Shown here piece after piece: positions 1-58,400 of a stretch of DNA of 64,000 nt (position 1 is its first letter; each line of letters starts with the position of its first letter). A model generated the notes under the pieces. That model saw only the letters and a program-made list of their open reading frames with translations, searched no databases and was not told where the DNA came from. The stretch spans positions 256,001-320,000 of the forward strand of contig CAWJKT010000004.1 of the NCBI GenBank assembly GCA_963843375.1, given 5' to 3'. The DNA is from an uncultured Pseudomonadota bacterium. GTDB taxonomy: Bacteria; Oederibacteriota; Muellerivitia; Muellerivitales; Muellerivitaceae. The translations under genes and the position numbers were made by a program.

Positions 1-573
1 ACGCCCACCCCCACGAGCTACACTTATACCTACGTGGACGAAGCTTTCAATCCTCAAGGCAATACTACCGATCCCCAGCTTGCGGACACCATCGCGGCTA
101 GTATTGGCCTCGTCGGCGAATATCCCTTGAGCGATCCTGTGACGGCTAACTGTCTTTATTGGGCGAGGTTCGAGGTGCCCAAACAGGGCGCTGGCGCCAT
201 GGCCACGACTGCGGTCCACGACATTACCGGGGAACGAACCGGCGACGTGAACGGCGACGGGTTCGTCTGGTCCATCCAGTCGACGGGTTACGTTTATAAA
301 AGATTGGATAAAAGAGTCGACATCTACGGCAACTGGATCGTCCCTTATAATTCAGCCCCCAACACCGTTGTGGCTAAGGCCGAATTTTCCACCGAGTTAA
401 GAAAATTAGGTTTGAACCTGCCCGTGCCCACACCCGGTCCTAGCGTTTATTCATCGGGGCTTTACGTATACAACGCGGGCCAGTGCGTTACCCTCACATC
501 CGGTGAAAGCCTCCTGGACGGGGCGGTGTCCCAAATCGATACCTTCGGAGTGATCGGGCTATCGAGCCCTTAG
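1..573 (+). CDS. 5'-truncated PilX/pilus-assembly-like protein (N-terminal/middle part)
   Basis: Frame 1 is open from base 1 (TPTPTSY...) to TAG at 571-573. The segment WSIQSTGYV...AKAEFSTELRK...GLYV resembles the STG-containing region of PilX-like proteins, and the gene sits upstream of two prepilin genes. Confidence 0.55.
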   Translation, partial: TPTPTSYTYTYVDEAFNPQGNTTDPQLADTIAASIGLVGEYPLSDPVTANCLYWARFEVPKQGAGAMATTAVHDITGERTGDVNGDGFVWSIQSTGYVYKRLDKRVDIYGNWIVPYNSAPNTVVAKAEFSTELRKLGLNLPVPTPGPSVYSSGLYVYNAGQCVTLTSGESLLDGAVSQIDTFGVIGLSSP

Positions 574-637: not shown

Positions 638-2605
638 ATGAGGGTTCGGGTCAAAAAAATTTTTCGGAAGGTCTTTGCTTTGGGGTTCCTGAAGCCATGG
701 CTTCTCCTTGTCCTGGCCCTGTTTTTACTGACCCAAGTTTCCTATGCCGCTCCTACTTCCACTCCCAGCAAAACCCCGACCAGCACCATCACTGAAACCT
801 TCACGAAGACTGCGACCAGCACTATCACCCAAACCTTAACTCAGACCCCAACCAGCACTTACACGAATACCGCGACCAGTACCATCACCGAAACCTTAAC
901 GAAAACCGCGACCAACACTTTCACCAATACTGCGACCAGCACCATTACCCAAACCTTAACCCAAACCCCGACCAATACCCCTACGACTACCCCGACCAGC
1001 ACCATCACCGAAACCTTAACGAAAACCGCGACCAGTACCGCGACCAATACCATCACCCAAACCTTAACGCAAACCCCGACCAACACACCCTCGAATACCA
1101 CGACCAGCACCATCACCCAAACCTTAACGCAAACCCCGACCAATACCGCGACCAATACCATCACCCAAACATTGACGAAAACCGCGACCAGTACCGCGAC
1201 CAATACAATCACCCAAACTTTAACGCAAACCCCGACCAACACACCCTCGAATACCACGACCAGCACCATCACCCAAACCTTAACGCAAACCCCGACCAAT
1301 ACCGCGACCAATACCATCACCCAAACATTGACGAAAACCGCGACTAGTACGACCACTCCCACTTTCACCTATACTCCAACCCTCACCCAAACCAATAGTG
1401 TGACGAGTTCACCGACCTATACAGCCACCCCAACGGCAACTAATACCATCACCCAAACCTTAACGAAAACTCAGACCAATAGCCCGACCTATACCACCAC
1501 AAGAACGGCAACCTTTACCATCACTGAAACTTTAACTACTACCGCGACCAATTCCCCGACCCCGACTAAGACCTTTACCGCGACCAATTCCCCGACCTTG
1601 ACTAAGACCTTTACCACGACCAATACCCCCACTAAAACGGCTTCTTACACCACCACCTTTACTCAGACCAAAACAGACACCAATTCCCCGACCGTTACCC
1701 TGACCTTTACCACCACCAAAACTACGACAGCAACCCCGTCCTTTACCCCCAGCGGGACACCTACCAATACCCCATGTTTCGTTATTCTTCACGGGATCGA
1801 AGTCCTCTGCACCAATACGCCCGGGATACCCACAAATACCTTTACTCCCTACATTACCCCCACCCCCACCATTACCAATACTTTCACCAATACCTATACC
1901 TTCACCAATTCCCCGACCATCACCAATACCCCCACTCCCTGTTACGTCACCAATAGCGGTGGGGCGACGGTTCTTTGTTCCTGCGATGAGCCCCAAAACG
2001 CTAATGCGGGCGACTTCCAGGGTGGGGTCACCTGCTTCAACGGTCCCGCCTCTCTCCTGACTTCGGAAAGCGTCTTCGGGATGAACCTGGCCGACGTCAA
2101 AAATGTCGCCGACTATATCGGCAGTTCCTCCAATGGGACCTCCATTGTCCTGGATATCACCTCCGATTGGAAACTCTCCTATTTCGATGGACCGGTCACC
2201 TATGGCCCTGATCAGCCCTTTCCCTATACCACCTTGGGCGCTCCCAAAACCGACACCACCCCGCAGACAAGCGGCTTCGGTATCCTGGTTGTCAACGGCG
2301 ACTTGACCTTGCAGGAAGGCAGCGGAAGCACCCTACCCAGTTCCTGGGGCGGTGTGATTTATTGCACTGGTAACCTAACCGTGGGGGGCGGGTGCGTCAT
2401 CACCGGGGCGGTCATCATGGGAATTCCCGATTCCAACGCGGCGGACGGCAACTACGGAACCATCACCCTTACCGGAAGCGCGGGTAATTTCGGACAGGTT
2501 ATCTATAGCCCCACCCTGGTGACGACGGCCGAGGAACTGGTGGGCGTTTACCGGGAAGATATCAGTGAAACGAAAAAGCTGCTGGCGATTCCCTTTTCCC
2601 AATAA
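638..2605 (+). CDS. Secreted protein: signal peptide + Thr-rich mucin-like stalk + PilX-C-terminal-like beta-solenoid
   Basis: Basic/hydrophobic signal peptide ending VSYA-AP, about 390 aa of T/P/N/S repeats, and C-terminal GILVVNGDLTL..GVIYCTGNLTV..ITGAVI..VIYSP motifs typical of PilX-like C-termini. Confidence 0.7.
   Translation: MRVRVKKIFRKVFALGFLKPWLLLVLALFLLTQVSYAAPTSTPSKTPTSTITETFTKTATSTITQTLTQTPTSTYTNTATSTITETLTKTATNTFTNTATSTITQTLTQTPTNTPTTTPTSTITETLTKTATSTATNTITQTLTQTPTNTPSNTTTSTITQTLTQTPTNTATNTITQTLTKTATSTATNTITQTLTQTPTNTPSNTTTSTITQTLTQTPTNTATNTITQTLTKTATSTTTPTFTYTPTLTQTNSVTSSPTYTATPTATNTITQTLTKTQTNSPTYTTTRTATFTITETLTTTATNSPTPTKTFTATNSPTLTKTFTTTNTPTKTASYTTTFTQTKTDTNSPTVTLTFTTTKTTTATPSFTPSGTPTNTPCFVILHGIEVLCTNTPGIPTNTFTPYITPTPTITNTFTNTYTFTNSPTITNTPTPCYVTNSGGATVLCSCDEPQNANAGDFQGGVTCFNGPASLLTSESVFGMNLADVKNVADYIGSSSNGTSIVLDITSDWKLSYFDGPVTYGPDQPFPYTTLGAPKTDTTPQTSGFGILVVNGDLTLQEGSGSTLPSSWGGVIYCTGNLTVGGGCVITGAVIMGIPDSNAADGNYGTITLTGSAGNFGQVIYSPTLVTTAEELVGVYREDISETKKLLAIPFSQ
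1021..1332 (+). repeat. Two near-identical 156-bp tandem repeats (52 aa) in the Thr-rich stalk
   Basis: gaaaaccgcgaccagtaccgcgacc... starts at 1021 and 1177, with a partial third copy at 1333. About two synonymous differences between copies. Confidence 0.9.
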
Positions 2606-2628: not shown

Positions 2629-5600
2629 ATGAGCGTGAAAAAACTTTCCCAAGCCGGGTTCAATCTGGTGGAACTGATGATCGCCGTGGGCATTCTTGCG
2701 GGGCTCTCTTCCGCCGTAATGATGGCCCGGTCCTACATGGCCAAACAAACGGTCAGCACCAACGACAAGGCTTATGCCACCCAAAAAGCCATCCAAATGT
2801 TCGAGGAACTCAAGGCCCTGGTGAATGGCAGCGAGAACTCGGTTAATGTTTTGGACAACTACAGCGACGGAACCAATTACAACCCCATTCTCACCACCGA
2901 TACCACCGTGAACAATGGCGTCACCGCCAACGCGGGGAACGCCTTGAGCGGAAACAAGCCCACACAAGGCGGCGCCTGGCGCTACCTACGGCAGATCCAG
3001 GTCAACCATGTGGCCAACGACGCCTACACCCGCCAGATCATCATCAAAGTTTGGCTCTACCAGTCGGACGCCAATCCCACCCTGCCCGGTACGCTCCTGT
3101 CCGAAATCGGGGGCAACCTGAGGACCATCGCCAGCACTTTCCCCCCCACACAGGTCATGGATGTTTACGTGCTGGCCATCAATAACATCGCCGGATGGTG
3201 GGCCCATGAGCCGGTCCTTTACCAGACCTTCCAAAGCATCATCAACGATATCCAAGGCCGGAACCCGGGGTTTGCCATCCGGCCCCACTATATCACTCGC
3301 ACTTCCTATGGGCGCGACAGCCAATACTTGCCTTACATCAATATTTATCCCTATAACACCGACGGAAATAACGACGCCACCGGCTCTCTCGTCACCACCT
3401 CCACCACGATCGGAAATATGCCTTTCGTTTACATGTATCCCGGCTATACCTACGAGGACGCCGCCGATGGCAGCGTGAGCGACTGCTTTTACGATCCGGG
3501 GCAGTCTCAGGACATCCCCCTGGGGGTTTGCCTGGACGGGAATTTCGACGTGGGGGGTTCCTACGACGATACCAGCCTGCAATTCACCAACTGTCCCAAT
3601 TACACCGTGGCGGACATGTATAACAACAGCATGCGTTACCCCGACGAACTGGCCATGTACCAGGCCGTCACCTCGGCCGCCTCCAGTGCCGTCCCCGCCG
3701 TCCCCGCCCAGGATTCGGTCACTGAAATCAGCTGGCGCATGTTGATGGAAGGAATGCTGGACGAACCCCAATCCTTCACCAACGCCCTCATCGTCAACCT
3801 TCACGGCGAACTTTGTCCCCTTCCGCCCATGCGTAATTATTCGGACCCCGCCAAGGACCCTGGCAGCCTGGACAACGCCAACGACACTAACATCCGAGTC
3901 GTCACCCACCCGCAAATGCTCTATTACCCCGGCAATTCAACAACCAGCGCAAATGTTGGGGTCACCCTCAATGTTTACGCCTATTACGACGGAATGGACG
4001 CCGCAGTCTCCCTGGACAGCCTCTACTCCCCGGTCAACGATCCTAAAACCAACATCAGTCTGTTCTTTCCCGACCTCAATACCGGCGCCAGCATCTTGGG
4101 GGTGACCGCCATCATCGGCAATTCGAGCCAGGCCTCGACTGTGGCTCCCGCCACGGGCCCCGTCACCTATCAATATGACGCCTTCACCATTCCAACCGGA
4201 GGATCGGGCAGCACACCTGGTATTTATAATGGAAGCCTTGCGGACGGAACCAACATCACGGGTCAGGGTCCCGTGAGCGTTGGCGTCAGTTACGTGGGGG
4301 CCAATAAGCAAATGCTCATCACCCTTTACAATACCCGTTTGCGCTGTCCTAGCGGACCCTCCACGTCGGTCGCGGCGAATGGCGCCACAATTGGCGGTTT
4401 GAACATCTTTGACCGTTTATACGGCTTGGAATATATCCCCTGCAGCCCAGACATGAGTTCCCTGACCAGTCCCGTTACTTTTACCAAGCAGGATTTGACC
4501 GATCCCGCTGCAAACGGAACGCCCAAAAATACCGCCCGTTGGCTGGTCAGCCTTTCCGTGCCTGTCACCTCAGGATTCCCCTTTGTCACCGCTGCCACCC
4601 CCTTAACGATCCAAAACGCAAGCGGCATACCCCAGATTTATGACAAACCCGTCACTTTCATTGGGCAACACACTATTGAGACCCGCATCGGCGCTGCGGT
4701 GACTTCCAACGGAGCCCCCAGCAACCTTTCCCGCACTTACCTATGGACCGGCTGGTCGGCCGTTGCGGACGAGGGATCGTCCTATGTCACCACGGGAACA
4801 TTCCCCCCGACCACCGAACAATACCAATTCCTGGGCGACCCTCGGCATGAACCTTACCTGGACGTCAAAGTCGGTGGCATCAATAACGGTCAAGCCGTCG
4901 TCATCCAGAAAAATGGCTACAACTGGTATTTCAAGGATGGGGCGAGGCCCACGACGGGCGTGCCGGTCGCCAACTCGGTGGGGATGAACAATGACGGTTA
5001 TGTCAGTTTCGGAATCGCGGGGGACACCAGCGGATCACTGCAAAACGGCCCCGGCACCCGGTATGGGGGCTGGTGGGGCGCCGATGGCAATTTCGTGGAC
5101 CTCCCCCGGTTCCACTCCATGGTCATGAATGGCCTTTTAAACGCCACCGGGGTCTGGACCACCATGAACGGTTGGACCTATTACTATTATGGAATGGGGG
5201 GAGAATTTGGGAGCGACCAGCCGCCCTTCCAGAATGGCATCACTATTAATGCATCCCTTTACAGCACCACGGCCAACGCCGCCGTCGACTACGTTTCTGA
5301 GATCATTCCATATACCGATGGGGGCGCGGCCTCTATCACCTCCTTGCACCTGCCCGCCAATACCCAACAAACCTGGTACGCGAAGACTTGGCTGGGGGAA
5401 CTTTATCCCGACAGCATGTACACCGCTTGGAGTTTTTACGGAAACCTTCCCTCGGCAAATATCGGGGGGCCTTCGAAGTTCACTTTTTACCGGGAGGATT
5501 TTGGAAGCATCCCCACCACCCTTTACAGCGGAACCGTGACTGTTTCCTACGGCAACGGAAATTCCCTGACCGGGTTTGGGCGCCAAGTCACCAACCGTGC

Positions 5601-6663
5601 CGGCGCGAACGGCTGTTCGTCTTTCTATAACGGTTCTGCCAACGGCTCCGGAACGGATAATACCTTTAACCATGAAGGGACGGGTGACACGGATTCCACC
5701 ACCAGCATGGCCGCTTCCTGTTTCAACATTTTTCAATATCCCCTTCCGGTGGAAGTAGTCAACTCATCCGGGCGTCCTTGGGCGTTGAATCAAGGGAACT
5801 ACCCTCCCCAATGGAATATCGCCCCCTATTCCACCCATAACACGCTGACCGTTCCAGAGGTCAACGGGACGTCACGCGTTTTTTATACCACCTCCGCGGG
5901 TTCACCCTGGACTGGCACGGGTGTGGTCCAGATCACGAATCCCAACGGCCTCGCCAATGGAGAGCCCGTCACCCAGGTCGCCTATGTGGTGGAATCGGGA
6001 TTGTCCATTTCCGCCCAAGTGGGGACCTCCGATCTGGGTGAAACGGCATTGGTGGCCCTACTCAGGACCTTTTTGGACGGGGGAAATTACGCGAGCCCCG
6101 GCCATATCACCCAAGTTCCCCTAATCGAATGTTATGTCGACAGCCCCACCAACCAGTATTACCAGCCCTCCGTTATCAACGTGATCGTGGATGGGGCTGT
6201 GACGACGGGGACCGCCACTTCGGTCACTCTCGTCGGCGGCGCTGTTACAACGCTCAGTACCGGGCCCACCAACAACATTTGGTACCGTTATCCGGGGCTC
6301 ACGTCCAGCACCGCCAATTTTTACACCGAGGAATATCCCGGTTATCCCACCCTTGCCAGCAGTACCTATGTCGAAACCGGCGGTAGCGGCACAACTCCCA
6401 TCAATCTGGACATGAACTTCAAGTATTCCACGGACAGCGGGAATACATGGTTGTTCATGAATAATAACGGACCAGCCACCTTCGGTGTCTTGGATTCCAG
6501 CGCCGACGGCAATTTGTACACCAGTAATAGTTTTCCCTACAGTTTCGCCTGGAACGTGAATAGCTTCCCCCAGGGGAATTATGAAATCATGGTGGAAGCT
6601 TACCGGCAAAATATGCCCCTGGATTACGCCTACCATATTCTTACGGTCACAATCGACCAATGA
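2629..6663 (+). CDS. Giant prepilin-type N-terminal cleavage/methylation protein (PilV-like, 1344 aa)
   Basis: Class III signal peptide KKLSQAG|FNLVELMIAVGILAGL with E5, followed by about 1200 aa of extracellular-like sequence ending in an Ig-like segment (AWNVNSFPQGNYEIMVEAY). Confidence 0.85.
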   Translation: MSVKKLSQAGFNLVELMIAVGILAGLSSAVMMARSYMAKQTVSTNDKAYATQKAIQMFEELKALVNGSENSVNVLDNYSDGTNYNPILTTDTTVNNGVTANAGNALSGNKPTQGGAWRYLRQIQVNHVANDAYTRQIIIKVWLYQSDANPTLPGTLLSEIGGNLRTIASTFPPTQVMDVYVLAINNIAGWWAHEPVLYQTFQSIINDIQGRNPGFAIRPHYITRTSYGRDSQYLPYINIYPYNTDGNNDATGSLVTTSTTIGNMPFVYMYPGYTYEDAADGSVSDCFYDPGQSQDIPLGVCLDGNFDVGGSYDDTSLQFTNCPNYTVADMYNNSMRYPDELAMYQAVTSAASSAVPAVPAQDSVTEISWRMLMEGMLDEPQSFTNALIVNLHGELCPLPPMRNYSDPAKDPGSLDNANDTNIRVVTHPQMLYYPGNSTTSANVGVTLNVYAYYDGMDAAVSLDSLYSPVNDPKTNISLFFPDLNTGASILGVTAIIGNSSQASTVAPATGPVTYQYDAFTIPTGGSGSTPGIYNGSLADGTNITGQGPVSVGVSYVGANKQMLITLYNTRLRCPSGPSTSVAANGATIGGLNIFDRLYGLEYIPCSPDMSSLTSPVTFTKQDLTDPAANGTPKNTARWLVSLSVPVTSGFPFVTAATPLTIQNASGIPQIYDKPVTFIGQHTIETRIGAAVTSNGAPSNLSRTYLWTGWSAVADEGSSYVTTGTFPPTTEQYQFLGDPRHEPYLDVKVGGINNGQAVVIQKNGYNWYFKDGARPTTGVPVANSVGMNNDGYVSFGIAGDTSGSLQNGPGTRYGGWWGADGNFVDLPRFHSMVMNGLLNATGVWTTMNGWTYYYYGMGGEFGSDQPPFQNGITINASLYSTTANAAVDYVSEIIPYTDGGAASITSLHLPANTQQTWYAKTWLGELYPDSMYTAWSFYGNLPSANIGGPSKFTFYREDFGSIPTTLYSGTVTVSYGNGNSLTGFGRQVTNRAGANGCSSFYNGSANGSGTDNTFNHEGTGDTDSTTSMAASCFNIFQYPLPVEVVNSSGRPWALNQGNYPPQWNIAPYSTHNTLTVPEVNGTSRVFYTTSAGSPWTGTGVVQITNPNGLANGEPVTQVAYVVESGLSISAQVGTSDLGETALVALLRTFLDGGNYASPGHITQVPLIECYVDSPTNQYYQPSVINVIVDGAVTTGTATSVTLVGGAVTTLSTGPTNNIWYRYPGLTSSTANFYTEEYPGYPTLASSTYVETGGSGTTPINLDMNFKYSTDSGNTWLFMNNNGPATFGVLDSSADGNLYTSNSFPYSFAWNVNSFPQGNYEIMVEAYRQNMPLDYAYHILTVTIDQ

Positions 6664-8155: not shown

Positions 8156-11100
8156 ATGGATTCAAAACTAATGGAAAAACTTCTCCTCAATCCTAACCGT
8201 TTAACCTTCTTTTCTATCTTTACGCTGTTAGCTTTCCTTCTGTTTCCTTTTCAAGCCTTAGCTACCGATACTTTTAATTTTGTGGTTCCTCCCACCTCTG
8301 CTTATGCGGGAGTGACCTATCAGGTAAACAGCGCGGTGACCTTCAACGTCCAGGCTCTGAACGGCGCGTCTGTGGATAATTCGTTCAACGACGTGGTGAC
8401 GGTGGGGCTCTACAACACCGCCACGAGCCAGTTGGCCGATCCCCAGGCTGTTTTTGTCCCTAGTGGTTATGCGCCCGTCGTCGGTGCGACCGCTCCCATG
8501 ACATTCCAAAATGGCCTTTTGAATTTCGGCGTCACCCTGACCGCCGGGTGCAATTCCATGCAGGTCAGCATCCAGGACGCCTCCGTCACCGCCTCTACCG
8601 CCACTTATCCCGGAGCTATCGGGAACACCTCGGGACCGGGATACGTGGTGGAGGGCTTTTTCCAATCCTATTTTCTCGCAGCCTCGAGTGGAACTACCAT
8701 CCCCGCCCAATATCCACCCAACACGGATCTGCTCCTGACCAGCCCGGTGACCAATTCCAATTACGCGGTAACCGTCATCTCGGGCAGCAGCGTCACCAAT
8801 TCTCTTTGTTTCGCCGTGACAGGGGTGACAGGGGGATATGCGGGGTTGAACGCTGGGGTAGCGGCACATTTTGAGGCTTTCAAGGACGTAAACGCCACCG
8901 CCGCAGTCAGCTATGAAGTGATACTGGATTACAACGGCACCCTGGCGGATTACAACAACCCGGACCTAACCCCGGGGGACCCCAACGAAGACACGGTTTA
9001 TTTCGGGTCAGTTCCCAACATCGCGGAAAGTTATAGCCTCGTCTCCGGATTTTCCTCTACTACTGGTGCTGCCCCCGCCACCTACATGAACAACGGCCAG
9101 GTGATCGTGCGCTTTTGGACCAGCGCCCCAGTCACCAACACGGTCAACCTCCAATGGTCCTCCAACGAGGGTATTCTTTCCTATATCAACGTTCCTTATT
9201 CCAATAGCAACGTCCAACCGGTGACGGCCGGCATGAGCCCCTCCATCATCGAGGACAGCGTCTCCACCCCCGTGACCTACACCATCAACAACCAATATTC
9301 CCTGCCCATCACTTACCTGACCATTCAAATACCCACGAACAATCCCTCGGGTTCAGGAACACCCTTTAGCGTCAGCGTGCCCAGCTCCGTTCCCGGCCTT
9401 CCCGGCAGCAGCCTGGGCGTTTCCCAAGCCACCAACACAACCACCGGGGCCATCACATTGATTTCCGCTTCGAACCCGATCACTGTCAACCAAGTGGTTC
9501 AGATTCCTTTAACCATCACCTGTTCTAGTCAAACCAACAGCGCCTGGGACTTTCCCCTCCTGTCGGTTTTGTCCAACACGGGCCTAGCCGTGCCCTCTGT
9601 TTCGGGCGGGGCGGTCATTGCCTCCGAGGCCCCGCCTCCGGCGCCTTCGTCCTTTACGGCTTCGGTGATCCCCTACATCAACAGCGGCGGGGGAAGCGTG
9701 AGTCTCAACTGGAGCCAGGTGACGGCCCAGACCAACCTGGGTTACGTCCTCAGCCGCAGTCCAACCCCTGCGACAGGGGCCTTTTCTGCTTCCGTCACAC
9801 TTCCCAACGGAACAATTGTCCCCAACGCGGTGACCTTCACCCCCAATACCACCCTGGGTTACATTGACTCTGCGGTGACCAACCTGACGGCTTACACCTA
9901 CAATCTTACGGCTTATAACGCAGTGGCCCAATCGACGCCGGTCACTACCGCCTCCGCCACGCCTTACGCCAATCCCGGACCGCCCTCCAGTGTTCAAGCC
10001 TTGACCGGAGGAACCACTATTGAACTCAATTGGGCGACACCTGTTGCCGTGCCTGGCTCTTATCCCGTGACGGGATACCAAATTTACCGGGGAACCTCTT
10101 CGGGGGGGAAAGCGGGACTCCCATCGCCCAAGTGGGGCTAGTGACCACTTTCAAGGATACGACCGTCAGTGCGGGGACGAATTATTATTATTATCTTTCC
10201 AGCATGGACAATCTTTACAGCGGTGGAGCGCCACTGGGCGCCCACGACAGCGGGCCTTCTTCTGAAGTCTCCGGTTATCCCAACGGCTGGCCCCCCACGG
10301 GACTCATCTCCAACCTGGTTTCACCCAGCCCGGCCACCATCGGTCTGAGTTGGACGGCACCTAGTTCAACACTGGTTTTGAACCAACCGATAGAGAATTA
10401 TCTGATTTATAAGGCACTGGCCCCTGGTGCCCCGGTTTATTATGCTTCGGTCGGCAGCAATGCCACGACCTTCGCGGATAGCACGGGCTTAGTGCAGGGC
10501 GACAGTTATATCTATCAAGTGGCGGCGATAGACAGCCAAGGGGTGACCTCCAACCTTTCAGGACCTGTCACTGAATCGGACGGGGCCTCGGCTCCCACGG
10601 GCCTCACCGCATCCCCCTCCGGAAGCGGCATCACTCTTACTTGGTCGGCCAACCCGGTAGCCCAAGGGGTCACCCAATACGGGGTCTACCAAAACGGAGT
10701 TTCCATTGGAAGTACGGCTGGTGTCAGTTTTCTGGTTTCGGCCGCGACCGCCGTCCAGGGCCAAAATGATATCTATACTTTGAACGCAATCGCACAAGGA
10801 TTTACGTCGCTTTTTTCAGCCCCCGTCACCTCGGCCCTGTTTCCGGTGGGGGAAACAGGCTTTACGGTGGCCTCGGCCTTGAACCCCAATACAACTGTCA
10901 ACCTTAGCTGGGCGACACTGATTGCGGGCAACGCCAACGCGACCGGTTACAATATTTATCGCAACCCTACAAGCAACAGCTACCCCTCAGGGGCCGTGGC
11001 CGTGACTCTGGGTATGGCCGTGACGGCGGCGGGGAACCCGGTGACTTCACTTCAGGACCTGGGACTCTCAGCGGGGACCACTTATTTTTATTTCCTCCAG

Positions 11101-14100
11101 GCCGTTAATCCCTCTGGTGTGGGGCCGGTCACCGAACAAGCCCTTCAAATCCCGCCTAACCCGCCGGGAACTCCTACGGTGACTTCATCCACCAGCGCCG
11201 TGACCCTCACTTGGACGGCCAACAGCGCCAGCCAGAACGTTTCCCAATACACCATCTACCGTTCCCAATTGCCCTCGGGAACACCCGTGGCCGTGGGGAC
11301 GGCTACCCCTGGAACCGCCACCAGTTTCACCGACATCGGCCCCTTGACCCAGGGCGTTAGCTATGTTTACGACCTGACGGCTACAAATCCTGGTGGGGGT
11401 GCGGGCATACCTGGCGGGGTCAGCCAGCCTTCCGCCTCTGTCACATGGGGTTTGTTGCCATTGGCTTCCACGGGCTTGGCGATTACGGGAATTACCCAGT
11501 CCAACAATATCTCCGTCACCTGGACCAACGTGACGACAGCCGACCCCAATGCCAGCGCCGTCTCGATTTTTGTCAATACTAACCACGCATCTCCCAACGG
11601 CGGAACCACTGTTAATATCACGCCAGTTTCAAGCCTGGGCGTTACCGATACGGGCTTCTTGAGCGGTGTCAGCGGGGAAGCGCCGGATACTTCCTATTAT
11701 TACTGGCTCCAGGTGACTGATCCATTTGGGGCGAGCGCCTACGAGGGCCCTGTCACTCAATTGACCTACCCCGGCGCCGTTAATCTGTCGCCGGTAACGC
11801 TGGCTTCGGACGGAGTTTCCCGAATTCTGGAATGGACCACCCTTCCCTCCGACGTGACTGGCTATACGGTCACCCAGGTAGGCGGAGGAGTTACCCTCAC
11901 CCAAGCTTATCCCGCTAGCGCTGCAGGAGCGCCGGTGACCCTGACCCTCGCCACCCAGCCGGGAGTGGCCTATATCTATACCGTTACGGCTACGAACGCC
12001 ACTGGCACGGGCCCGGCCTCTAATTCACAAACCTTCAGTTCACTCCCTTCCTCTCCGGTGAGTGTGACAGCGATTTCGGGCACGAGCAACACGGGAGTCA
12101 CCGTGGTCATTTCCTGGTCGGCCCCGGTTTCCGCTTCCCAAGAAGGGGTCACGGCTTATTCGGTTTACCGGGCCACGGCCTTGGCCGGACCCTACATGGC
12201 AGTGGTTTCGGGGCTCACAGCCCCTCTCACTTATGCCGATTCGGGCGCAGCTGTAACCGGGTTGGGCGTTTATTACTATATCGTCGTGTCGGATGACAAC
12301 ATGGGCCAACAGAGCCCGGTGACGTCTGTCGACGCTGTGCCGGTAACGGCCTTCGCCCTGCCCAACCCGCCTGGGACGCCGAACGACGTTCCCGCCAACA
12401 GTTCCGTTACTTTAACCTGGACCCCGGGTTCGGCCACCACCTATCCGGTTTCCATTTATGACATCAGCCGTGTAAACGCGGGGGTTACCACGGTCATACC
12501 AACCGCCGCAGTGACTTTCGACGACACTACCGTGCTGAATGGAATGACCTATGTCTACTTCCTCCAAACTGTGGATAGCCAGGGCAACCTGAGCCCCGCG
12601 ACCTTGCCCGTGACCGTGACGCCATTAAATACCCCCGGCCCTCCTCAAAACCTGGGCGTTGGGGTGGGGGATCAGGAACTATTATTGACATGGAAAGCGG
12701 GAACGGCTGGAACCCTGCCTATCGGCAGTTACCTCATCTATCCGATTACAATTACGGGCACGGGCCCGATGACCGCTTCCGCCCCGGTTTCCGTCAGTTC
12801 AACCTTGACGGGATATTTGGACACCGGATTAATGGATGGGGTCACTTATAGTTTTTACATGCAATCGGTCGATACGACCGGGGTCACCACGGGTTTGGAT
12901 ATCAGTCCTCCCTCGGCTTTGGTTTCGGGAGTTCCTGTTTCCCTTACCGCAAACCCCCCGAGCAATTTGGCCGCCACCGGGGGTGTCTCCCAAGTAATTC
13001 TCTCCTGGACGGATTCAGTTACGGTAATTGGCGGAACCAATGTCACGGGTTACAACATTTACCGAAGCACCGCACCTAATTTCTCCAGTCCCACGACCTT
13101 GGCGTTCGTATCCGCTCCTGGAGGCGGTGTCACCGCCCAGGCCGTCACCGATACGGGCCTGATTAATGACACAACTTATTACTATTACATGACCGCCTCG
13201 GCCCCTGGAACGGTCAGCGCCGATAGCGCCACTGTGTTCGGTATTCCTGCGGTGCCGCCCGCGGCCCCAGCGACCTTGATCGTCACGGCCGGAAACCAGC
13301 AGGTTCTAATCGATTGGCCTCCATCCTCCCCGGTGGTCGGAGCCCTTCCCGTTTCTTTCTATATAGTCACCATCAACGGTGCTCCGGTTACGGTGCCCGC
13401 GACCCAAACTTGGTATTTGGATTCTGGCTTGACTAATCCGACTCCGGTCACGGTCACAATTCAGGCCATGGATTCTCTGGGGGTTACCACCGGAAACAAC
13501 GCCAGTACGATCGTAGGCCCTCTTTCGGCCACCACCAGCGGCTCGGACTTGAACCCTCCTAACGCCTTGACCGCAGCCGTCACGGGAACGAACTCCATCA
13601 AACTCACCTGGGGGCCCCCCAACGCCGATGGTTATCCCGTCACGGCCTATAACCTCTACCGCGCCACCACTTTCACCACCAGTTTCCTTAGCCCCTTAGC
13701 CACCCTTTCTAATAGTTCTCCTGTTACTTCCTATCTCGATACCAACCTCGCGGCCAATACCACCTACTATTACGTTCTTCAGGCAATGTATTCCTCCGGG
13801 CCCGGCGGGGCTGTCTCGTTGGAAAGCCCTTATTCTAATCACGCTGAAGCGACCACTCCCGCCCCGAGTGCGGCCGTGCCGCCGGTCACCCTGGGAGTGA
13901 TGGCCTTCGATGCCAATGTCTTGAAGCCCCTGACGGGCCAGCAACTAGGGATTTATTTCGTGGCTCCCGAAAGCGGGCCGGTGGAACTGGACATTTATAA
14001 TATTTCGGCCCATCCCATCCGGGCACTTTATGCCACGGCCATCGCAAACATAACTGTTAGTTTGACGTGGGACGGCAAGGACCGTGAGGGTAGTTGGGTC

Positions 14101-14175
14101 GCCTCCGGGGTTTACCTAATTGAAATCAAGGCCCCAGGTCTGCACCAGATCAAGAAAGTGCTGGTGGTTAAGTAA
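8156..14175 (+). CDS. ~2006-aa secreted fibronectin type III repeat protein with C-terminal FlgD-Ig/T9SS-like sorting domain; frameshifted at G7 10102-10108
   Basis: Signal peptide (..FPFQALA). ORFs 8156-10141 and 10030-14175 join if one G is added, giving YRGTSSGGESG. More than ten FN3 repeats (LxW..Y.IYR..Y.Y.V.A). C-terminus IYNISAHPIRAL..WDGKD..VASGVYLIEI..KKVLVVK. Confidence 0.85.
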
Positions 14176-16121
14176 TGATCGAAAAAGAAAGCCCTGAGTC
14201 CTTCTTTTTGAGCCCTCAGTTGCTAAGAATTTTCAATTTCAAAGTTCAAATTGAGAATTCCCTTCGCCGCCTAAATTCCGCCGTCAGTTCCTTCTTGCTC
14301 GCTTCCTGTTTGATATTGGGACTACAGGTGGCGGCACAGGCCCAACAGCTCACCAGTGGCGCGGATTTCCTTACCATCGACAGCGGCGCCCGCAGCGAGG
14401 GCATGGGCGAGGCTTTCACCGCAATGGCCGATGACGTGACGGCCCTCACCTGGAATCCGGCGGGCATTGCGCTTTTAAGCCGCCCCCAAGTGGGCTATCT
14501 CCACCTGCTTTACCTGAACAGTATCGGCTACAATTTCGGCGGGGTGGTAGTGCCCCTTCCCGCGGGCGAAGACACCTTCGGGCTCGGCGCAGGGCTGGTC
14601 AACCTGGGGACCGGCAGTTTCGACAGCACCTTGGGGCTGGCCCCGGCGGTTTCCGCTGGGGATAACGCCTTTTTGCTTTCCCTTGCTTACCGCGTGAAAA
14701 GGATTATTTCCTTCGGGGTGACGGCCAAGTACATCCAGGAAGAGCTAGCCGGGTACAACGCCTCCGCTTTCGCGGGCGACGCGGGCGTGCTTTTCACCCC
14801 CGGTGACCGGGTTAGAATCGGACTGGGAGTATTTGATTTCGGACAAGAAGTCCAGTTTATTTCCGCCGCTGATCCCCTTCCTTTCAGTGGCCGGTTGGGC
14901 TTGGCCTGGAAGATCCTTGACCTTCCCCGTCACACCCTGACGCTGTCCGCCGATAACGGTTGGGAATTTACCACCCAAACCTACACCGGCGCGGCGGGGG
15001 CTGAATATTGGTTCGACCGGATACTGGCTTTGCGGGCGGGGTTCACGGGCGACTCCTACCAACAGCATCCCACCGCCGGCGTGGGAATTAATGTGGACCC
15101 GGTTGAGTTCGATTACGCCTTTTCGCCCCAGGGCACCCTGGGCGACACCCACCGGTTTTCCCTTGTGCTGAGTTTCGGCAATGAGGCTGTGGAAGGATTG
15201 ATAGCGCCCACGGGCTTTAACGCCATTTCGTCGGATGGGTCCATCTCTCTTCATTGGAAGCCCGTTCCTTCCAACTTGGTCGTGGGTTATAACGTCTACG
15301 TCAAAAAGCCCAATACCGATAGCATGTTGCTGGTCACGAAAAGGCCCTTGGGCATCGGTGAATTATCGGTTCGGTTGAACCATCTAGTGAACGGACAAAC
15401 CTATACTTTTGGTTTGGCCTCGGTTAGCGCGGCGGGAAGCGAAAGCTCCCTGGTGACCCTGACGGCGGTGCCAAGCGCGGTGGTGGCGGCAGCGCCCTCA
15501 CCCACTCCCGTTTTCCCGGCACCCACCGGCTTCAAGGCGACCGCCACAGCGGAGGGTTTCAACCTGACTTGGGATAAAGCCCTCTCTTCCGACGTGACGG
15601 GTTTTTATCTTTACCTCGTCGGCGATCCCGGCACGCCGGTTAAAAAAATATCACCCACCCAGATCACGGATAATATCATCATCCTTAAAAAGGTGAATCC
15701 GGACAAAACCTACCAGTTCCTTTTAACCGCCGTGAACAAAGCCGAAACGGAGAGCGCGGCGGCGACCCTCACCGCGAATTTCACCGAATTGAAAAAGGCC
15801 CAACTGGCCGCCCAGTATCCTCCGCCCGCTCACTTAGCCCTTCTGGTGAATGCCGCTAAAGTCACCCTGAGCTGGAATAACGGAGGGGCGGGGATGAAAT
15901 ATAATGTTTACGTTTCCCACGATGGGGTTAGTTACAAGCTTTTGACCCCCACCGGCACCCTCAAGACTCAAGCTGTATTAGGTCCGCTGAAGCCCAGTAC
16001 CGTTTATTATTTTGGTGTTACCGCTTTGTATCCCGATGGTAAGGAAAGCGATAAGTCCCTTCAGCAATTAACCACGCCCGCTCCCGTCGCAAATGAGACC
16101 CCGACCCCCAATCCAGGTTGA
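14175..16121 (+). CDS. PorV/PorQ-like (UPF0164) outer-membrane beta-barrel fused to three FN3 domains
   Basis: GADFLTIDSGARSEGMGEAFTAMADD..ALTWNPAG N-terminal motif. The barrel ends FDYAF..LGDTHRFSL and is followed by three FN3 repeats. TAATG overlap with the upstream gene; the true start may be downstream. Confidence 0.85.
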   Translation: MIEKESPESFFLSPQLLRIFNFKVQIENSLRRLNSAVSSFLLASCLILGLQVAAQAQQLTSGADFLTIDSGARSEGMGEAFTAMADDVTALTWNPAGIALLSRPQVGYLHLLYLNSIGYNFGGVVVPLPAGEDTFGLGAGLVNLGTGSFDSTLGLAPAVSAGDNAFLLSLAYRVKRIISFGVTAKYIQEELAGYNASAFAGDAGVLFTPGDRVRIGLGVFDFGQEVQFISAADPLPFSGRLGLAWKILDLPRHTLTLSADNGWEFTTQTYTGAAGAEYWFDRILALRAGFTGDSYQQHPTAGVGINVDPVEFDYAFSPQGTLGDTHRFSLVLSFGNEAVEGLIAPTGFNAISSDGSISLHWKPVPSNLVVGYNVYVKKPNTDSMLLVTKRPLGIGELSVRLNHLVNGQTYTFGLASVSAAGSESSLVTLTAVPSAVVAAAPSPTPVFPAPTGFKATATAEGFNLTWDKALSSDVTGFYLYLVGDPGTPVKKISPTQITDNIIILKKVNPDKTYQFLLTAVNKAETESAAATLTANFTELKKAQLAAQYPPPAHLALLVNAAKVTLSWNNGGAGMKYNVYVSHDGVSYKLLTPTGTLKTQAVLGPLKPSTVYYFGVTALYPDGKESDKSLQQLTTPAPVANETPTPNPG

Positions 16122-27261: not shown

Positions 27262-27290
27262 TGAAACCTGGATGTTGCTGGGAACGTCTA
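27262..27290 (+). promoter_or_regulatory. Possible ECF sigma promoter (TGAAAC-N17-CGTCTA)
   Basis: Matches the AAC...CGT architecture of ECF promoters, about 40 bp upstream of the OMP start. Confidence 0.4.
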
Positions 27291-44471: not shown

Positions 44472-44913
44472 GAAGATACCTCCTTTTTTTATAGAACTTA
44501 TTTTATCAGAATAAAAAGAAGTCCCCGAAACGGAATGAGATGACGTTTTAGGAATGGTCGTTCCGATCACCCCTGTTTTTTGGAACCAAGTGGGAGTTCT
44601 CCAAAATCTCTCAATTCTTTGCGTTAGGACCGGGTAAATTTTAAAAATCGGCAAGTAAAGCCCTTTATACCCGCAAAATAAACGGGCCCATCGGATGAGT
44701 TTGTTAAGCCTAAATTTTGGTGATAAACTCAAGACTCGGTTTCAACTCCTTTACCCCGTTCATTCAGAAAGTTGTTAATCCAGCCTTGAAGGGCGATTCA
44801 TCAAAATGCGGGTCTACCTATCAAATTTCATTGGCGGGGGAAAATCCCTAATTCTCCGTAAAGAGAGTATGGAGGTTTTTACTTTCTCAGTTTTAATGAG
44901 GGCCGTCGGGCGG

Positions 44914-45798
44914 ATGTTGAAAGTATTTCGGATTTCAGCGTTTCTATGGTTTATTGGCTTTGCCGCTGTTCAAGCCCAATTAGTTGTCGGTGAAACTGGC
45001 AACCTTTCTGTCACCTGGGTGAACGGGTCGACGGCCTATAGCGGAGCCACAATTACGGCTACGGTCCCTTCCGACTTCACTTATAACTCCTGCACCGGCG
45101 GCGTCACCTGCTCTGATGTTGGAGGAGTTGTCACTTGGGATATCGGAAACTTATTGCCGGGAGAGGCAGTCACGGTTTTCTATAATTTGACCGTTAGTTC
45201 TTGCGCGACCAATTCGGTCACCATTCAGAGTGTCGTGGGGGCTTCTTCCCCGGCAACGGAATCAAACAACTCTCCCTTGATTTATACTGTCGACTGCCTG
45301 ACCGATACACCGACCGTCACCCCGACGGTTACCTCCACACCGACCATCACTCCTACCGCAACGATCACCTCCACCCCGACTAACACTTCAACCCCCACGA
45401 TCACCTTTACTCCTACAATCACGTTTACTCCGACTAATACCTACACTTTCACGAACACCTTTACGGCCACTTCCACTCCCACAATCACGAATACGTTTAC
45501 GGTAACCCCCACGCCTACTCCTACCTGCGTCACCCATGTTTGGCCAGACCCCTTTAACCCGAAATACGCCGTGTCGGGATTGTTGAACTTGAGCTGTATC
45601 CCGCCGGGGGCAACGGTTTTCTTTTACACCATTTCAGGGGAGTTGGCTAATAGCATGCCGGAAACGGGTGGAATGGTGCAGTGGAACGGACGAAATCGAA
45701 GCGGGGTTCTAATTTCGTCCGGCGTTTACTACTACGTTATTAAGGTGGGCAATCAGACGGAAGGAACCGGCAAGTTTCTGGTGAATCAGGGGTCTTGA
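44914..45798 (+). CDS. Secreted protein: DUF11-like domain + Thr-rich linker + C-terminal FlgD/T9SS-like domain
   Basis: Signal peptide (..AAVQAQ), VTWDIGNL.PG.....Y.LTV, TPT repeats, and WPDPFNP..YTISGEL..WNGRN.SG..SSGVYYYVI..GKFLV. Confidence 0.8.
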   Translation: MLKVFRISAFLWFIGFAAVQAQLVVGETGNLSVTWVNGSTAYSGATITATVPSDFTYNSCTGGVTCSDVGGVVTWDIGNLLPGEAVTVFYNLTVSSCATNSVTIQSVVGASSPATESNNSPLIYTVDCLTDTPTVTPTVTSTPTITPTATITSTPTNTSTPTITFTPTITFTPTNTYTFTNTFTATSTPTITNTFTVTPTPTPTCVTHVWPDPFNPKYAVSGLLNLSCIPPGATVFFYTISGELANSMPETGGMVQWNGRNRSGVLISSGVYYYVIKVGNQTEGTGKFLVNQGS

Positions 45799-55430: not shown

Positions 55431-58400
55431 CTAGTGCCTTACGACGAGATGGACGGTTTGCCGCTCGGTCATTCCGTTGGCATCGTTCAGGTCCACCACG
55501 GCCAGATAAAAACCGCTAGCGACCCCCGAAGCGTTCCACGATACCTGGTTGGTTCCCGGGGCTCCCCGTATCGTTCCCACGAGTTCACCCGTGATCGTGT
55601 AAAAACGCGCGGTCAAAGTCAGGCCGAGGGCCGAGTTCACCCTCAAAAGGGTGGTCGTTTGGTTCCCCACCAACAAATTAGGCTCGGCGACAACCTGTCC
55701 TAGTGCCATTCCCTGAGCGCTGTTGATGACCAACACCTTTTGAGTGATGGTCTGGTCCCCTCCGTTTTCATTCACCCAATAGGCCTCCACGAAATATTGG
55801 CCGTTGGTCACCAGGCTTCCCCCGTCGTTGGTGCCATTCCAAACGATTGTTAGGCCGCCGTCGGACATGGCCACGTGGATGGTGGTTTGGGCGGGGACGC
55901 CAGACGGGGAAAGGGGGCCGCCGGGTGAAATCACGCTTGCCGATAGGACCACCGACTGGATAGTGTTGCTGCTAACAGGGACCATAGCCTGGTAAAGATG
56001 CTTCACCACCTCTCCGGCCTCGTTGTATACCTCCACCAAAACCATGGAAAGGGTTCGGTTCACGGTCACGGTCTGGGTCGTGGTCGTCACCACGCCAAAG
56101 CTGTCGGTGCTTTGAACCTTGATGAAATACTCGCCGTTGGTGACCGGGGTGCCGTTCTGGGTGGTGCCGTCCCAGGATGCCGCTGGAATCCCCAACAGGG
56201 ACAGCGAGATTGAGCTGGTTTGGTTGGAAAGGATGGCGGAGGAAAGCTGGAAAGTCTGGATGACCTGGGAAAAATTCTGGACCAGTAAGGTTTTCACCAA
56301 TTCCCCAGCCGAGTTATAGACGCTGACTTGGACGTTAATGGGAAAAATTACTGTGACCGGCGCGGTGACGGATTGGGGCGGGCCGCCGAGGTAAGCCGCT
56401 TGGGCTTTATTCAAAAGCACCGTCTGTTCGATCAGGTTTGTCTGGACCGTGACTGTATAGGGCAATTGGTAGGAGCCGGGACTCAGGGAAGGAAAATTCC
56501 AATTAAGGACCTGGCCGCTTTCTCCCATGGTTTCGCCGGAAATAGCGGGCGAAGGCGGGCCGAGAGCCGCGAAATTCACCTGCGCGGGCAGGGTATCGGT
56601 GACTTTTACGTTCGAGGCGACAGATCCCGAGACCGTTAGAAGGATCCGGTAGGTTATCGTGTCTCCGGGATGGGCTGAGGTCTCGGAAGCCACCTTTTGA
56701 ATTTGGATTCCCGGCGTGGGAGTAAAGGTATTGGTGGGTGTGAAGGTGAAAGTCGGTGTCTGGGTAGGCGTAAAAGTATTGGTGGAGGTTGGGGTGAGTG
56801 TGGGCGTAAAGGTAGGGGTGAAAGTAGACGTTTTCGTGGCGGAGGGCGTCGGGGTATAGGTGGCTGTAGTCGTGGCCGTGTTTGTGGGAGTGGGAGTTTC
56901 GGTCGCAGTGAAAGTTTGGGAAGGGGTAAAAGTCGCGGTCCAGGTAGCCGTTAGGGTGTAGGTGTCGGTTACGGTCGATGTCGCAGTGAGGGTGGGAGTG
57001 GAGGTTGCCGTGTAGGACTCGGTGGATGTGGCGGTGAAGGTCTCAGTGGAAGTGGGTGTTTCAGTCGCGGTCGTGGTGAAGCTTAGGGTCGCGGTCGGAG
57101 TTGACGTGTTCGTAGGGGTTGCGGTGGGTGTGACCGTGGGACTATTGGTCGAAGTGATCGTGGAGGTATTCGTTGTTGTTGCGGTAGCGCTGTTCGTCGG
57201 CGTGCCCGTTGGAGTGTAAGTGGGGCTGTTTGTCGCGGTCGGGGTGGTTGTACCAGTGGAAGTGTTAGTTGCGGAATTGGTGGCCGTGGGTGTTGGAGAG
57301 TTCGTTGTGGTTGGCGTAGTTGAGTTCGTAGGGGTGTTGGTTGAAGTGACGGTTGGACTGTTGCTCGCGGTGTTCGTTGGAGTTACGGTGGGGCTGTTGC
57401 TTGCGGTACTGGTGGATGTGTTGGTGGGGGTGTTGGTCGCGGTATTGGCCAGTGTGTTGGTCGGAGTGTTCGTGGGGGTCGGGGTGGGCGTCTTGGTGGG
57501 AGTGCTGGTTGCGCTGGGTGTTGAAGAGTTCGTTGTGGTTGGCGTAGTTGAGTTCGTAGGGGTGTTGGTAGGAGTGGCGGTGGGACTGTTGCTCTGGGTG
57601 TTCGTGGGAGTATTAGTCGTTGTCGCGGTGGCGCTATTTGTCGGAGTATTCGTGGACGTCGGTGTTGCACTGTTTGTTGGGGTATAAGTAGGACTGTTGG
57701 TGGGAGTGTTGGTCGCGGTATTGGCTAGGGTGTTGGTCGGTGTATTCGTCGGTGTAGGGGTAGGCGTCTTGGTGGGAGTATCGGTTGGGGTATTAGTGGC
57801 AGTTGGCGTTGGAGAATTTGTTGTTGTTGGAGTGGCAGTATTTGTAGGGGTGCTGGTGGGAGTAGCGGTGGGACTGTTGGTCGCGGTGTTCGTGGGAGTG
57901 TTAGTCGTTGTCGCGGTGGCGCTATTTGTCGGAGTATTCGTGGACGTCGGTGTTGCACTGTTTGTCGGGGTATAAGTGGGACTTTTGGTGAGGGTGTTGG
58001 TCGCGGTATTGGCTAGGGTGTTGGTCGGCGTGTTCGTCGCGGTTGTGGAGGAAGTCAAAGTGAAAGTGTTGGTGGGTGTATTGGTGGTAGTGTTGGTGGT
58101 GGTGTTTGTGGGGCTAAGAGTGGGTGTACTTGTAGGAGTCGGGGTGGGTGTGCGAGACGCCGTATTCGTGGGGGTCAAAGTCGGGGTATAGGTCGGGGTA
58201 TCCGTGGGACTGTTCGTAGTAGTAAAAGTAAACGTTGGTGTCGGACTGTTTGTGGGCGTGTTTGTTACGGTATTCGTGGAGGTTGGGGTGGAGCTGTTTG
58301 TCGTGGTGTTCGTTGGAGTGTTGGTGGCGGTATTAGTTTGGGTATTCTCCGGAGTGTTGGTGAGAGTGTAAGTGGAGGTTGGATTCGGGGTGTTCGTCGG

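Follow-up and report, generated by a model that had tools for sequence, protein, structure and literature searches.

The genome from which the analysed stretch of DNA (64 kb, hereafter the window) derives probably encodes those parts of a type IX secretion system (T9SS) that act at the outer membrane, hereafter its outer-membrane half, without the motor, the ring, and the sortase of Bacteroidota, the cargo proteins being kept on their cognate barrels. Since a SprA gene is present in the genome, this half of the T9SS is proposed rather than a route based on PorV only; export by means of the C-terminal tag is suggested by sequences and by predicted structure. The first-pass annotation of the window had proposed a divergent type IX-like pathway with cargo-coupled barrels in a host not belonging to Bacteroidota, and the genome-wide picture supports this proposal.

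Sorting Domain

The three tails found at the annotated positions of the window (Table 1) share only 22–24% identity; they scored 63.0, 71.4, and 48.8 bits on a profile of the other 82 copies present in the genome, versus 5.0–10.6 bits for the best of 300 shuffles of each tail. In the source genome (G000), 85 proteins carry the domain at their extreme C-terminus, and a crude hydrophobicity test revealed a signal-peptide-like start in 64 of the 77 tagged proteins of at least 250 aa versus 620 of the 1885 other ORFs. The description of the tail as a C-terminal domain holds for these 85 copies but is not exclusive, as further internal copies are located in 7 of the same proteins, and internal copies alone were seen in two PorV-like proteins and, in the final genome scan, in one ORF.

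The tags show the PNP and G.Y motifs, and 73% of the tails have the last-strand lysine; in the solved complexes, PorV is bound by a conserved lysine (PMC10994853). Eleven of 18 tails match TIGR04183 at E up to 0.01, with the window tail just below the cut-off (Table 1), and the best window tail reaches 21.4 bits on CHU_C (type B tag), below the cut-off of 27. Glycoside hydrolase domains were found in 12 of 31 hand-picked cargos, and the tagged passengers include GH5, GH8, GH9, GH12, GH28, GH30, GH44, GH62, and subtilases.

Window Locus

Table 1. Features of the window related to the cargo–barrel pair and to the orphan cargos.
Feature	Coordinates	Strand	Basis
3' part of PilX-like gene (gene begins just before the window)	34..573	+	N-terminal motif reading
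Thr/Pro-rich signal-peptide protein, operon member	638..2605	+	Sequence reading, orthologue synteny
Giant 1344-aa protein, prepilin N-terminal methylation motif	2629..6663	+	TIGR02532 19.2 bits (cut-off 16.3)
Minor pilin-like protein, 398 aa	6660..7856	+	TIGR02532 25.9 bits; PF07963
Single cargo gene: signal peptide, FN3 repeats, C-terminal sorting domain	8156..14175	+	Domain searches; intact orthologue
C-terminal sorting domain, FDANxxxP subtype	13885..14175	+	TIGR04183 22.4 bits (cut-off 23); leave-out profile 63 bits
PorV-family barrel (~14346-15185) fused to three C-terminal FN3 domains (from ~15200)	14175..16121	+	NF033709; PF00041
Orphan cargo, 330 aa: signal peptide-like segment, DUF11, Thr/Pro linker, sorting domain (~45535-45798)	44806..45798	+	Domain search, leave-out profile
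Orphan cargo, 1608 aa, Thr/Pro-rich; terminal sorting domain (55431 to ~55720)	55431..60257	-	Domain search, leave-out profile

A conserved operon begins with the PilX-like gene, and the orthologues of its giant prepilin-motif protein span 1208–1355 aa. The cargo gene is split here into two ORFs (8156–10141 and 10030–14175) by a frameshift near position 10,100, inside a G run, and is unbroken in the same-genus genome G021, where it encodes 2008 aa; an assembly error is likely, since rpoB and sprA are also fragmented in the same assembly. This assembly is 80% complete, and its contig C4 looks chimeric. Of the three signal-peptide proteins first described, one needs to be redefined: ORF 10030–14175 is the 3' part of the gene and has no signal peptide of its own, which belongs to the whole gene. 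The three proteins had also been regarded as otherwise dissimilar, which does not apply to the two orphan cargos, both rich in Thr and Pro (S+T+P content of 35% and 46%). Neither has an adjoining barrel gene, and the longer one harbors internal FlgD-Ig-like copies at ~55720–56460.

The stop codon of the cargo gene overlaps the start of the barrel gene in a TAATG at 14173–14177, as originally reported. The pair is retained in all the 12 informative close orthologues, and pilin genes accompany it in 9 out of 10. This organization suggests the display of an FN3 rod of ~2000 residues, made together with minor pilins, and the rod is probably an adhesin working with the type IV pilus. No Rfam matches were found within the 64-kb window.

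The barrel scored 157.9 bits on the NCBIfam PorV_fam model NF033709 (cut-off 90) and 55.2 bits on the strict PorV equivalog NF033710, below the 250 required. Its FN3 tail corresponds to three PF00041 stretches, which had escaped the first reading of the sequence; the tail would face the periplasm, according to the strand count and to the topology of the FadL family. The single-sequence AlphaFold model of the whole barrel-FN3 protein has a pLDDT of 37.

When the window tail and its barrel were co-folded without alignments, the predicted interface scored 0.94 versus 0.00 for the best control, with runs agreeing in 100% of contacts and a partner pLDDT of at least 94; the mark adopted was reached by 51 of 78 solved pairs and by 2 of 108 mismatched pairs. 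By strand reading, the predicted contacts lie on the extracellular loops of the barrel. The score may reflect memory, because PorV-CTD complexes have already been solved, and it does not resolve which paralogue is bound.

PorV Paralogues and Cargo Pairing

The source genome harbors 19 PorV-family loci, and at 11 of them a tagged gene is located directly upstream, compared with 38 of 1962 genes overall (p 2e-15); two of these 11 coupled genes encode anti-sigma factors rather than cargo, and the remaining eight barrels have no tagged gene directly upstream. In the other families of the phylum, a tagged gene directly precedes 19 of the best 40 PorV loci. Across 73 pairs, similarity between barrels tracks similarity between tails (r 0.58; the highest of 999 permutations gave 0.11), a value inflated by kinship and including at least two anti-sigma pairs. 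The C-terminal extensions of the paralogues consist of FN3, TPR, or Ig+OmpA domains. Outside the window, some TPR-tailed barrels are embedded in cassettes composed of an ECF sigma factor, a single-pass anti-sigma factor ending in a copy of the sorting domain, and the PorV-TPR fusion barrel.

Alternatively, the tail might be a generic Ig module of the FlgD type and the barrels might be channels of the FadL type, with no sorting signal involved. In the PDB, the tail profile indeed matches flagellar FlgD best (5e-9), with the PorU tail a little behind (1.8e-8), and FlgD matches the profile as well as the PorU, PorZ, and NucA tails do; moreover, internal copies exist and the same Ig domain also occurs in places expected to be periplasmic. 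This reading is, however, highly improbable in view of the 85 terminal copies compared with a single internal-only ORF in the final scan, of the glycoside hydrolases and subtilases among the passengers, of the barrel paralogue profile, which gives 1e-32 for PorV (6H3I_F) in the PDB and no better than 3.5e-6 for FadL-type barrels, and of the coupling between tagged and barrel genes.

SprA Pore

SprA is missing from the window, as reported, but not from the genome, in which one SprA-type pore gene is located, in pieces, on another contig, C15. The intact copy of G021 scored 226.6 bits (cut-off 200); in the PDB, the SprA profile matches SprA only (3.5e-54), and phmmer with the SprA sequence alone gave no match. 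The predicted fold of the C-terminal 699 aa (pLDDT 85) has ~25 long strands, and SprA entries are the top four matches in the fold search (E 2.7e-13, TM 0.53). SprA matches were retrieved from 58 of 61 genomes of the phylum, and PorV-family proteins from all 61. LPS and Skp-like genes (labels by sequence reading) adjoin sprA, so the host is a diderm. Among 24 genomes from other phyla, chosen by their PorV-like gene and including Elusimicrobiota, Spirochaetota/Leptospiraceae MAGs, KSB1, Calditrichales, and Gemmatimonadetes, 21 also encode a compact SprA; a partial GldM match was found in one of these genomes.

It might be argued that the cargo leaves through the secretins of a T2SS-like cluster or of a type IV pilus and is captured by the barrel from outside, SprA having some other job. 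Two secretins, with pilin and ATPase clusters, are encoded by the source genome, secretins occur in all the genomes checked (G000, G047, and three motorless genomes with few contigs), and the window cargo gene lies downstream of minor pilin genes. Nevertheless, SprA and the barrels are found together throughout the phylum and in the 21 genomes mentioned above, and in 14 of 21 loci a tagged gene lies immediately downstream of sprA itself, which makes this route quite improbable.

Undetected T9SS Components and Host

The absence of GldKLMN and PorU, at first noticed in the window, extends to the genome searches, in which the Bacteroidia controls were positive. GldM was found in 0 of 42 phylum genomes and in 23 of 25 Bacteroidia, and GldL and GldN in none of four phylum genomes (controls positive), GldN being absent from the source genome also by our own profile. 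No GldK exceeded the cut-off in the same number of genomes, the source genome showing generic FGE domains below it and the other three none. Our own profiles from 20 Bacteroidia operons retrieved from the source genome only coiled-coil (MlaD-like, chemoreceptor-like) and FGE-domain matches; GldL-profile matches were rejected as coiled-coil artefacts. Searches of four genomes gave no PorZ over the cut-off, no PorP/SprF (TIGR03519; six copies in the control), and no SprE/PorW over the cut-off of 250 (control 756.7 bits), a model on which generic TPR proteins reach 137–149 bits. In the source genome, nothing but the tail region is matched by the PorU model, and C25 peptidases are absent from 10 own-family genomes, with 8 of 8 Bacteroidia controls positive; they occur in 7 of 36 high-quality phylum genomes, while the tested FCB genomes carry a C25 peptidase of PorU size.

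It is very unlikely that the T9SS is complete, with a motor, a ring, and a SprE too divergent to be recognised by sequence. SprA itself barely exceeds its family cut-off, so its partners could be even more diverged; the known system requires energy (PMC10994853); and a ~1000-aa TPR protein, encoded in a conserved TPR-barrel-ExbB-ExbD-TonB operon, reaches 144–149 bits on the SprE model. This protein, however, scores higher on generic YbgF, and the searches for GldK, GldL, GldM, and GldN gave the results reported above.

In a quick RpoB tree, in which G021 stands in for the source genome and the G003 row is left out, the seven FCB references group together in a clade (SH-aLRT 99), and G021 lies outside it. 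On sequence grounds, the host falls outside Bacteroidota/FCB, probably in FCPU426 as judged from the tree by elimination, and the searches detected none of the canonical motor, ring, and sortase.

Proposed Mechanism and Energy Source

According to the model of an outer-membrane half alone, the cargo, judging from its N-termini, would cross the inner membrane via Sec; its Ig-like tag would then enter the single, compact ~2000-aa pore, whose homology to SprA is established and whose function we infer, and would bind, at the lateral gate, the extracellular loops of a docked PorV-family barrel. Because there is no PorU to cut the tag, the cargo would stay bound, uncut, to its barrel, which would act as the surface anchor; this would explain why many barrels are co-translated with one cargo each. 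Extension-less solitary barrels (e.g., G000:C3:37498) probably serve the ~70 orphan cargos of the genome, many of which are glycoside hydrolases. The FN3, TPR, and Ig+OmpA extensions would anchor or signal in the periplasm.

In F. johnsoniae, removal of the motor or of SprE leaves the substrates trapped on SprA, and motor energy is held necessary to extract them (PMC10994853); a motorless version thus needs an explanation. The force pulling the loaded barrel off SprA might tentatively be ascribed to a dedicated motor not yet recognised. TonB-ExbBD, acting through a TPR scaffold, is a possible though doubtful source: full-length barrel orthologues of the TPR-barrel-ExbBD-TonB operon (E <1e-60) are carried by 17 of 35 phylum genomes, and genomes in which no SprA was detected (G083, G064) give weaker matches as well. 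None of the six MotA/ExbB loci of the source genome adjoins sprA or a porV gene. Release without dedicated energy seems rather unlikely, and traction by the pilus machinery very unlikely, because the pilus has its own secretin and the link with pilins concerns one pair. A FliF-FliG fusion with MotAB located beside PorV was discarded as a general motor, being patchy and undetected in the own family.

Relation to Known Systems

The system resembles the type A translocon of F. johnsoniae (6H3I, 8GL6, 8GL8) and P. gingivalis (Sov/PorV) in having SprA and PorV homologues, a C-terminal Ig-like tag that bears the PNP and G.Y motifs and a lysine in its last strand, and, in the model, a tag lying on the barrel loops. 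It differs from it in the number of PorV paralogues (~19, many C-terminally extended, versus one shared shuttle), in the size of SprA (about 1750–2300 aa in this phylum versus 2403 aa) and, within the own family, in its N-terminal FN3-like domain, in the lack of detectable GldKLMN, SprE, PorU, and PorZ, and in a host outside FCB. As in the type B pairs SprB-SprF and PG1035-PorP-PorE, the cargo gene is directly upstream of its own barrel; in those pairs, the tag is uncleaved and the barrel is the anchor (PMC12618676, PMC12398890), as would be the case here, but the present barrels belong to the PorV rather than to the PorP family and the tags are type-A/FlgD-like.

A search of openly accessible papers found nothing on a SprA-PorV system in FCPU426, Goldbacteria, or Elusimicrobiota, nor on the anti-sigma cassette. 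SprA, PorV, and tagged proteins without GldKLMN have reportedly been noticed in Ignavibacteria and Fibrobacter by Kulkarni in 2017 and by McBride and Zhu in 2013. PorV, SprA, and Plug without other T9SS proteins are already in print for Melioribacter and Ignavibacterium (PMC11705866); unlike these FCB members, the present host is non-FCB; in contrast to the FCB genomes tested here, its own family has no C25 peptidase. The passage on Melioribacter and Ignavibacterium mentions no paralogue expansion, cargo pairing, or signalling cassette (PMC11705866).

The T9SS has been called exclusive to Bacteroidota or FCB (PMC12618676, PMC12398890, PMC5445135). It is conceivable, though the case is slightly short of even, that SprA, PorV, and the Ig-like tail represent an older and widespread diderm display system, to which Bacteroidota later added GldLM, GldKN, and, with other FCB groups, PorU; here, the system would use another or no dedicated energy source, uncut tags would sit on dedicated PorV paralogues, and barrel-TPR fusions with tagged anti-sigma factors would form a new type of cell-surface signalling. 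A phylum-wide SprA-PorV system without GldKLMN makes the energy requirement directly testable and bears on the origin of the T9SS. It would also explain how large plant-polysaccharide enzymes are placed on the surface of these uncultured bacteria and, if the tag–barrel pairs are specific, such orthogonal pairs could serve as a simple surface-display tool.

In FecA-FecR-FecI systems, cell-surface signalling is performed by TonB-dependent transducers. A PorA-PorV-PorXY-SigP signalling pathway has also been described (PMC7712824). The cassettes share with both the association of an ECF sigma factor, a single-pass anti-sigma factor, and a barrel with a periplasmic extension; in contrast to both, they have a PorV-TPR fusion as their barrel, and their anti-sigma factor ends in a copy of the sorting domain.

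Tagged Proteins and the Barrel of the Window

The first-pass annotation had claimed that three secreted proteins of the window share a C-terminal domain and that one of them is coupled to a PorV-like barrel. ORF calling and family scans agree with this view: each of the three proteins carries an Ig-like domain (the tag, or tail; about 95 aa) at its C-terminus, the start of the barrel gene overlaps the stop of the first tagged gene (TAATG), and the downstream gene belongs to the PorV family (NF033709, 157.9 against a cut-off of 90). The identity among the three tails is 22-24%; a profile of the other 82 copies in the genome scores them at 63, 71, and 49 bits, with a shuffle control of at most 10.6 bits. 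The barrel carries three FN3 domains at its C-terminus, and no barrel adjoins either of the other two tagged genes (cargos). The first tagged ORF (10030-14175) is only half a gene; in G021 (a 99% complete genome of the same genus), 8156-10141 and 10030-14175 correspond to a single signal-peptide FN3 protein of 2008 aa. As rpoB and sprA are likewise broken in the assembly of the source genome (G000), we read this break as an assembly error.

An interface between tail and barrel was also predicted. In the ESMFold2 models, the window tail sits on the barrel (score 0.94 versus 0.00 for the best control), with 139 contacts common to all runs and a partner pLDDT of 94 or more; this mark was attained for 51 of 78 solved pairs and for 2 of 108 mismatched ones. 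Since PorV-CTD complexes have already been solved, this result speaks for likeness to them and not for binding by this copy. Judging from the pattern of strands, the predicted contacts would lie on the extracellular loops, with the FN3 tail exiting on the periplasmic side.

Upstream (5') of the window pair are located a PilX-like gene and the genes for a Thr/Pro-rich protein, a 1344-aa prepilin-motif protein, and a 398-aa minor pilin. A search of 30 other genomes of the family gave 13 close orthologues of the window barrel (E below 1e-140); a tagged gene lies directly upstream in all the 12 with upstream DNA, the FDANxxxP tail is the same in those cargos whose tail was read, and pilin genes precede the tagged gene in nine of the ten loci with enough DNA. 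The pilus secretin is encoded elsewhere, away from the operon. Since the pilus has its own secretin, we read the FN3 rod as an adhesin exported separately and co-expressed with the pilus tip.

The prepilin-motif protein encoded at 2629-6663 is 1200-1350 aa long across the family, conserved, and without a Pfam match; it is a minor pilin of unusual size and possibly the tip adhesin of the pilus. The window also harbors a second major pilin-like gene copy (42437-42934), whose N-terminus is near-identical to that of G000:C1:233176, and a small outer-membrane beta-barrel (27272-27907; PF13568, 81.7 bits).

Tags and Barrels across the Genome

The profile iterated from the three window tails converged on 85 C-terminal copies in G000, with internal copies also present in 7 of the 85 proteins. 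According to a crude hydrophobicity rule, 64 of the 77 long tagged proteins have a signal-peptide-like start versus 620 of 1885 other ORFs, several of the tagged exceptions being frameshift fragments. Among 31 cargos picked by eye, 12 contain glycoside hydrolase domains, 3 carbohydrate-binding domains alone, and 2 peptidase domains. The 24 NF033709 matches are grouped into 19 loci, 11 of which lie directly behind a tagged gene (versus 38/1962 genes overall, p 2e-15); two of these 11 tagged genes encode anti-sigma factors. Barrel similarity and tail similarity co-vary (r 0.58, 73 pairs), which shows co-inheritance, not specificity.

Barrel extensions consist of TPR, FN3, or Ig plus OmpA domains, and several barrels have none. 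Two PorV-like genes with long extensions are embedded in a flagellar cluster (G000:C25:10998-14718) without an adjoining tagged gene. A single protein (G000:C3:152914-155307) joins a PorV-like barrel, FlgD-Ig domains (internal), and a peptidoglycan-binding OmpA domain, recalling a PorP-PorE fusion.

Coordinates of the window cargos and of the gene sets associated with tags and barrels (C, contig; L, locus fetched from a related genome)
Feature	G000	Other genomes	Remark
Cargo gene and barrel	window 8156-14175, 14175-16121		cargo frameshifted
Cargos without adjoining barrel	window 44806-45798 (+), 55431-60257 (-)
Tagged FN3-rich protein next after sprA	C15:115600-121039	L034:2870-7507
ECF sigma/anti-sigma/PorV-TPR barrel/cargo cassette	C11:291140-295227, C12:7102-11191, C16:26473-29552, C6:199860-203402	L174-L213	expanded across the family
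Signal peptide + tag proteins	C16:26473-26865	L174-L180, L182, L183, L186	directly before TPR-tailed barrel
Operon: TPR protein (roughly 1000 aa), barrel (550-615 aa), ExbB, ExbD, TonB	C10:214554-221555	L217, L219, L220, L221
FliF-FliG fusion, MotA, MotB beside PorV-family genes		G004, L224:4215-12944, L225:6107-12766	separate from flagellar FliG

Sigma/Anti-Sigma Cassettes

Outside the window, four G000 loci combine an ECF sigma factor, a single-pass anti-sigma factor with a shortened terminal tag copy, and a TPR-tailed barrel. Anti-sigma matches occur in 28 of 31 family genomes, and 39 of 40 fetched loci contain a recognisable anti-sigma gene, with the sigma gene directly upstream in 38 of these 39 and a barrel within three genes in 36 (versus 4% at random G000 positions). 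In nine cassette loci, the gene before the barrel encodes a 118-161-aa protein comprising little beyond a signal peptide and a tag, a possible plug or secretion reporter. We infer that the cassette might transmit a signal from the surface to the cytoplasm via the TPR tail of the barrel, or might check secretion by means of the tethered tag.

SprA and the Missing Components

G000 has one SprA gene, adjoined by LPS genes on contig C15. Its intact G021 counterpart (2028 aa, C-terminal residue Phe) is over the TIGR04189 cut-off; the profile built from it has no PDB match other than SprA, and the model of its last 699 residues shows about 25 long strands, the best match again being SprA. A tagged gene lies directly 3' of sprA in 14 of 21 phylum loci, and the FN3-rich tagged protein following sprA may belong to the core of the system, as a plug or chaperone, and not be an ordinary cargo.

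Several other T9SS parts were searched at the sequence level within the genomes considered. GldM was found in none of 42 phylum genomes versus 23 of 25 Bacteroidia controls; GldN and GldL were found in none of four genomes each, and GldK, SprE, PorZ, and PorP gave nothing over cut-off in four genomes, with positive controls in all cases. Our own profiles of the missing parts retrieved coiled-coil and FGE matches alone in G000. C25 peptidases were found in 0/10 genomes of the family, 7/36 high-quality phylum genomes, and 8/8 Bacteroidia.

Possible Mechanism and Energy Source

In the known T9SS, loading of cargo onto SprA-PorV needs no energy, extraction requiring the motor and SprE (PMC10994853); type B cargos have cognate barrels encoded directly downstream (PMC12618676). 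The motor, ring, SprE, and attachment complex of the canonical T9SS are not matched by this system, which, judging from its genes, would work like the outer-membrane half of a T9SS. Type-A-like tags and PorV-family barrels are here joined to type B logic, with the sortase absent, so the simplest reading, and a probable one, is that uncleaved cargo is retained on its barrel.

Six MotA/ExbB loci exist in G000; they belong to the flagellum, to TonB-dependent receptors, and to a single conserved TPR-barrel-ExbBD-TonB operon, and neither sprA nor porV adjoins any of them. In two other phylum genomes, ExbBD or MotAB genes lie beside barrels, such links being patchy. The TPR-barrel-ExbBD-TonB operon is a candidate energy source, and the FliF-FliG fusion (matched over its full length in G002 and G029 and partially in G061) with MotA/MotB is a possible non-flagellar rotary motor. 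In G004, genes for an ECF sigma factor and a tag-bearing anti-sigma factor come next after the TPR-barrel-ExbBD-TonB operon; in G012 a similar motor set lies 3' of a cargo-PorV pair.

A motorless set of PorV, SprA, and Plug is mentioned once, for Melioribacter and Ignavibacterium (PMC11705866); our literature search found no description of this lineage's system, of the PorV paralogue expansion, or of the anti-sigma cassette.

Host and Distribution

In a quick RpoB tree, seven FCB references form a clade with good support; G021 falls outside it and is not grouped with the one Elusimicrobiota or the two Spirochaetota references included. FCPU426 is the putative phylum of the host. PorV-family genes occur in 61/61 phylum genomes (10 to about 30 each among the matches listed) and SprA matches in 58/61, five of them over cut-off. 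In a rank-selected (non-random) sample of 40 top-scoring barrels from other families of the phylum, the distance to an upstream tagged gene is at most 450 nt in 19 cases and 488-674 nt in 3 further ones. In other phyla, a compact SprA profile matches 21 of 24 genomes reached via their PorV-like genes, with a partial GldM match in one of the 24. In G062 (Calditrichales; C1:832787-833338), a 262-aa open frame matches the C-terminal part of GldM alone.

Along the contig harboring the window (C4), the GC content changes from about 62% (0-120 kb) to 50% (120-460 kb, the part with the window) and then to 69% (beyond 460 kb); because of these shifts, the contig looks chimeric. A second, divergent EF-Tu is encoded on G000 contig C24.
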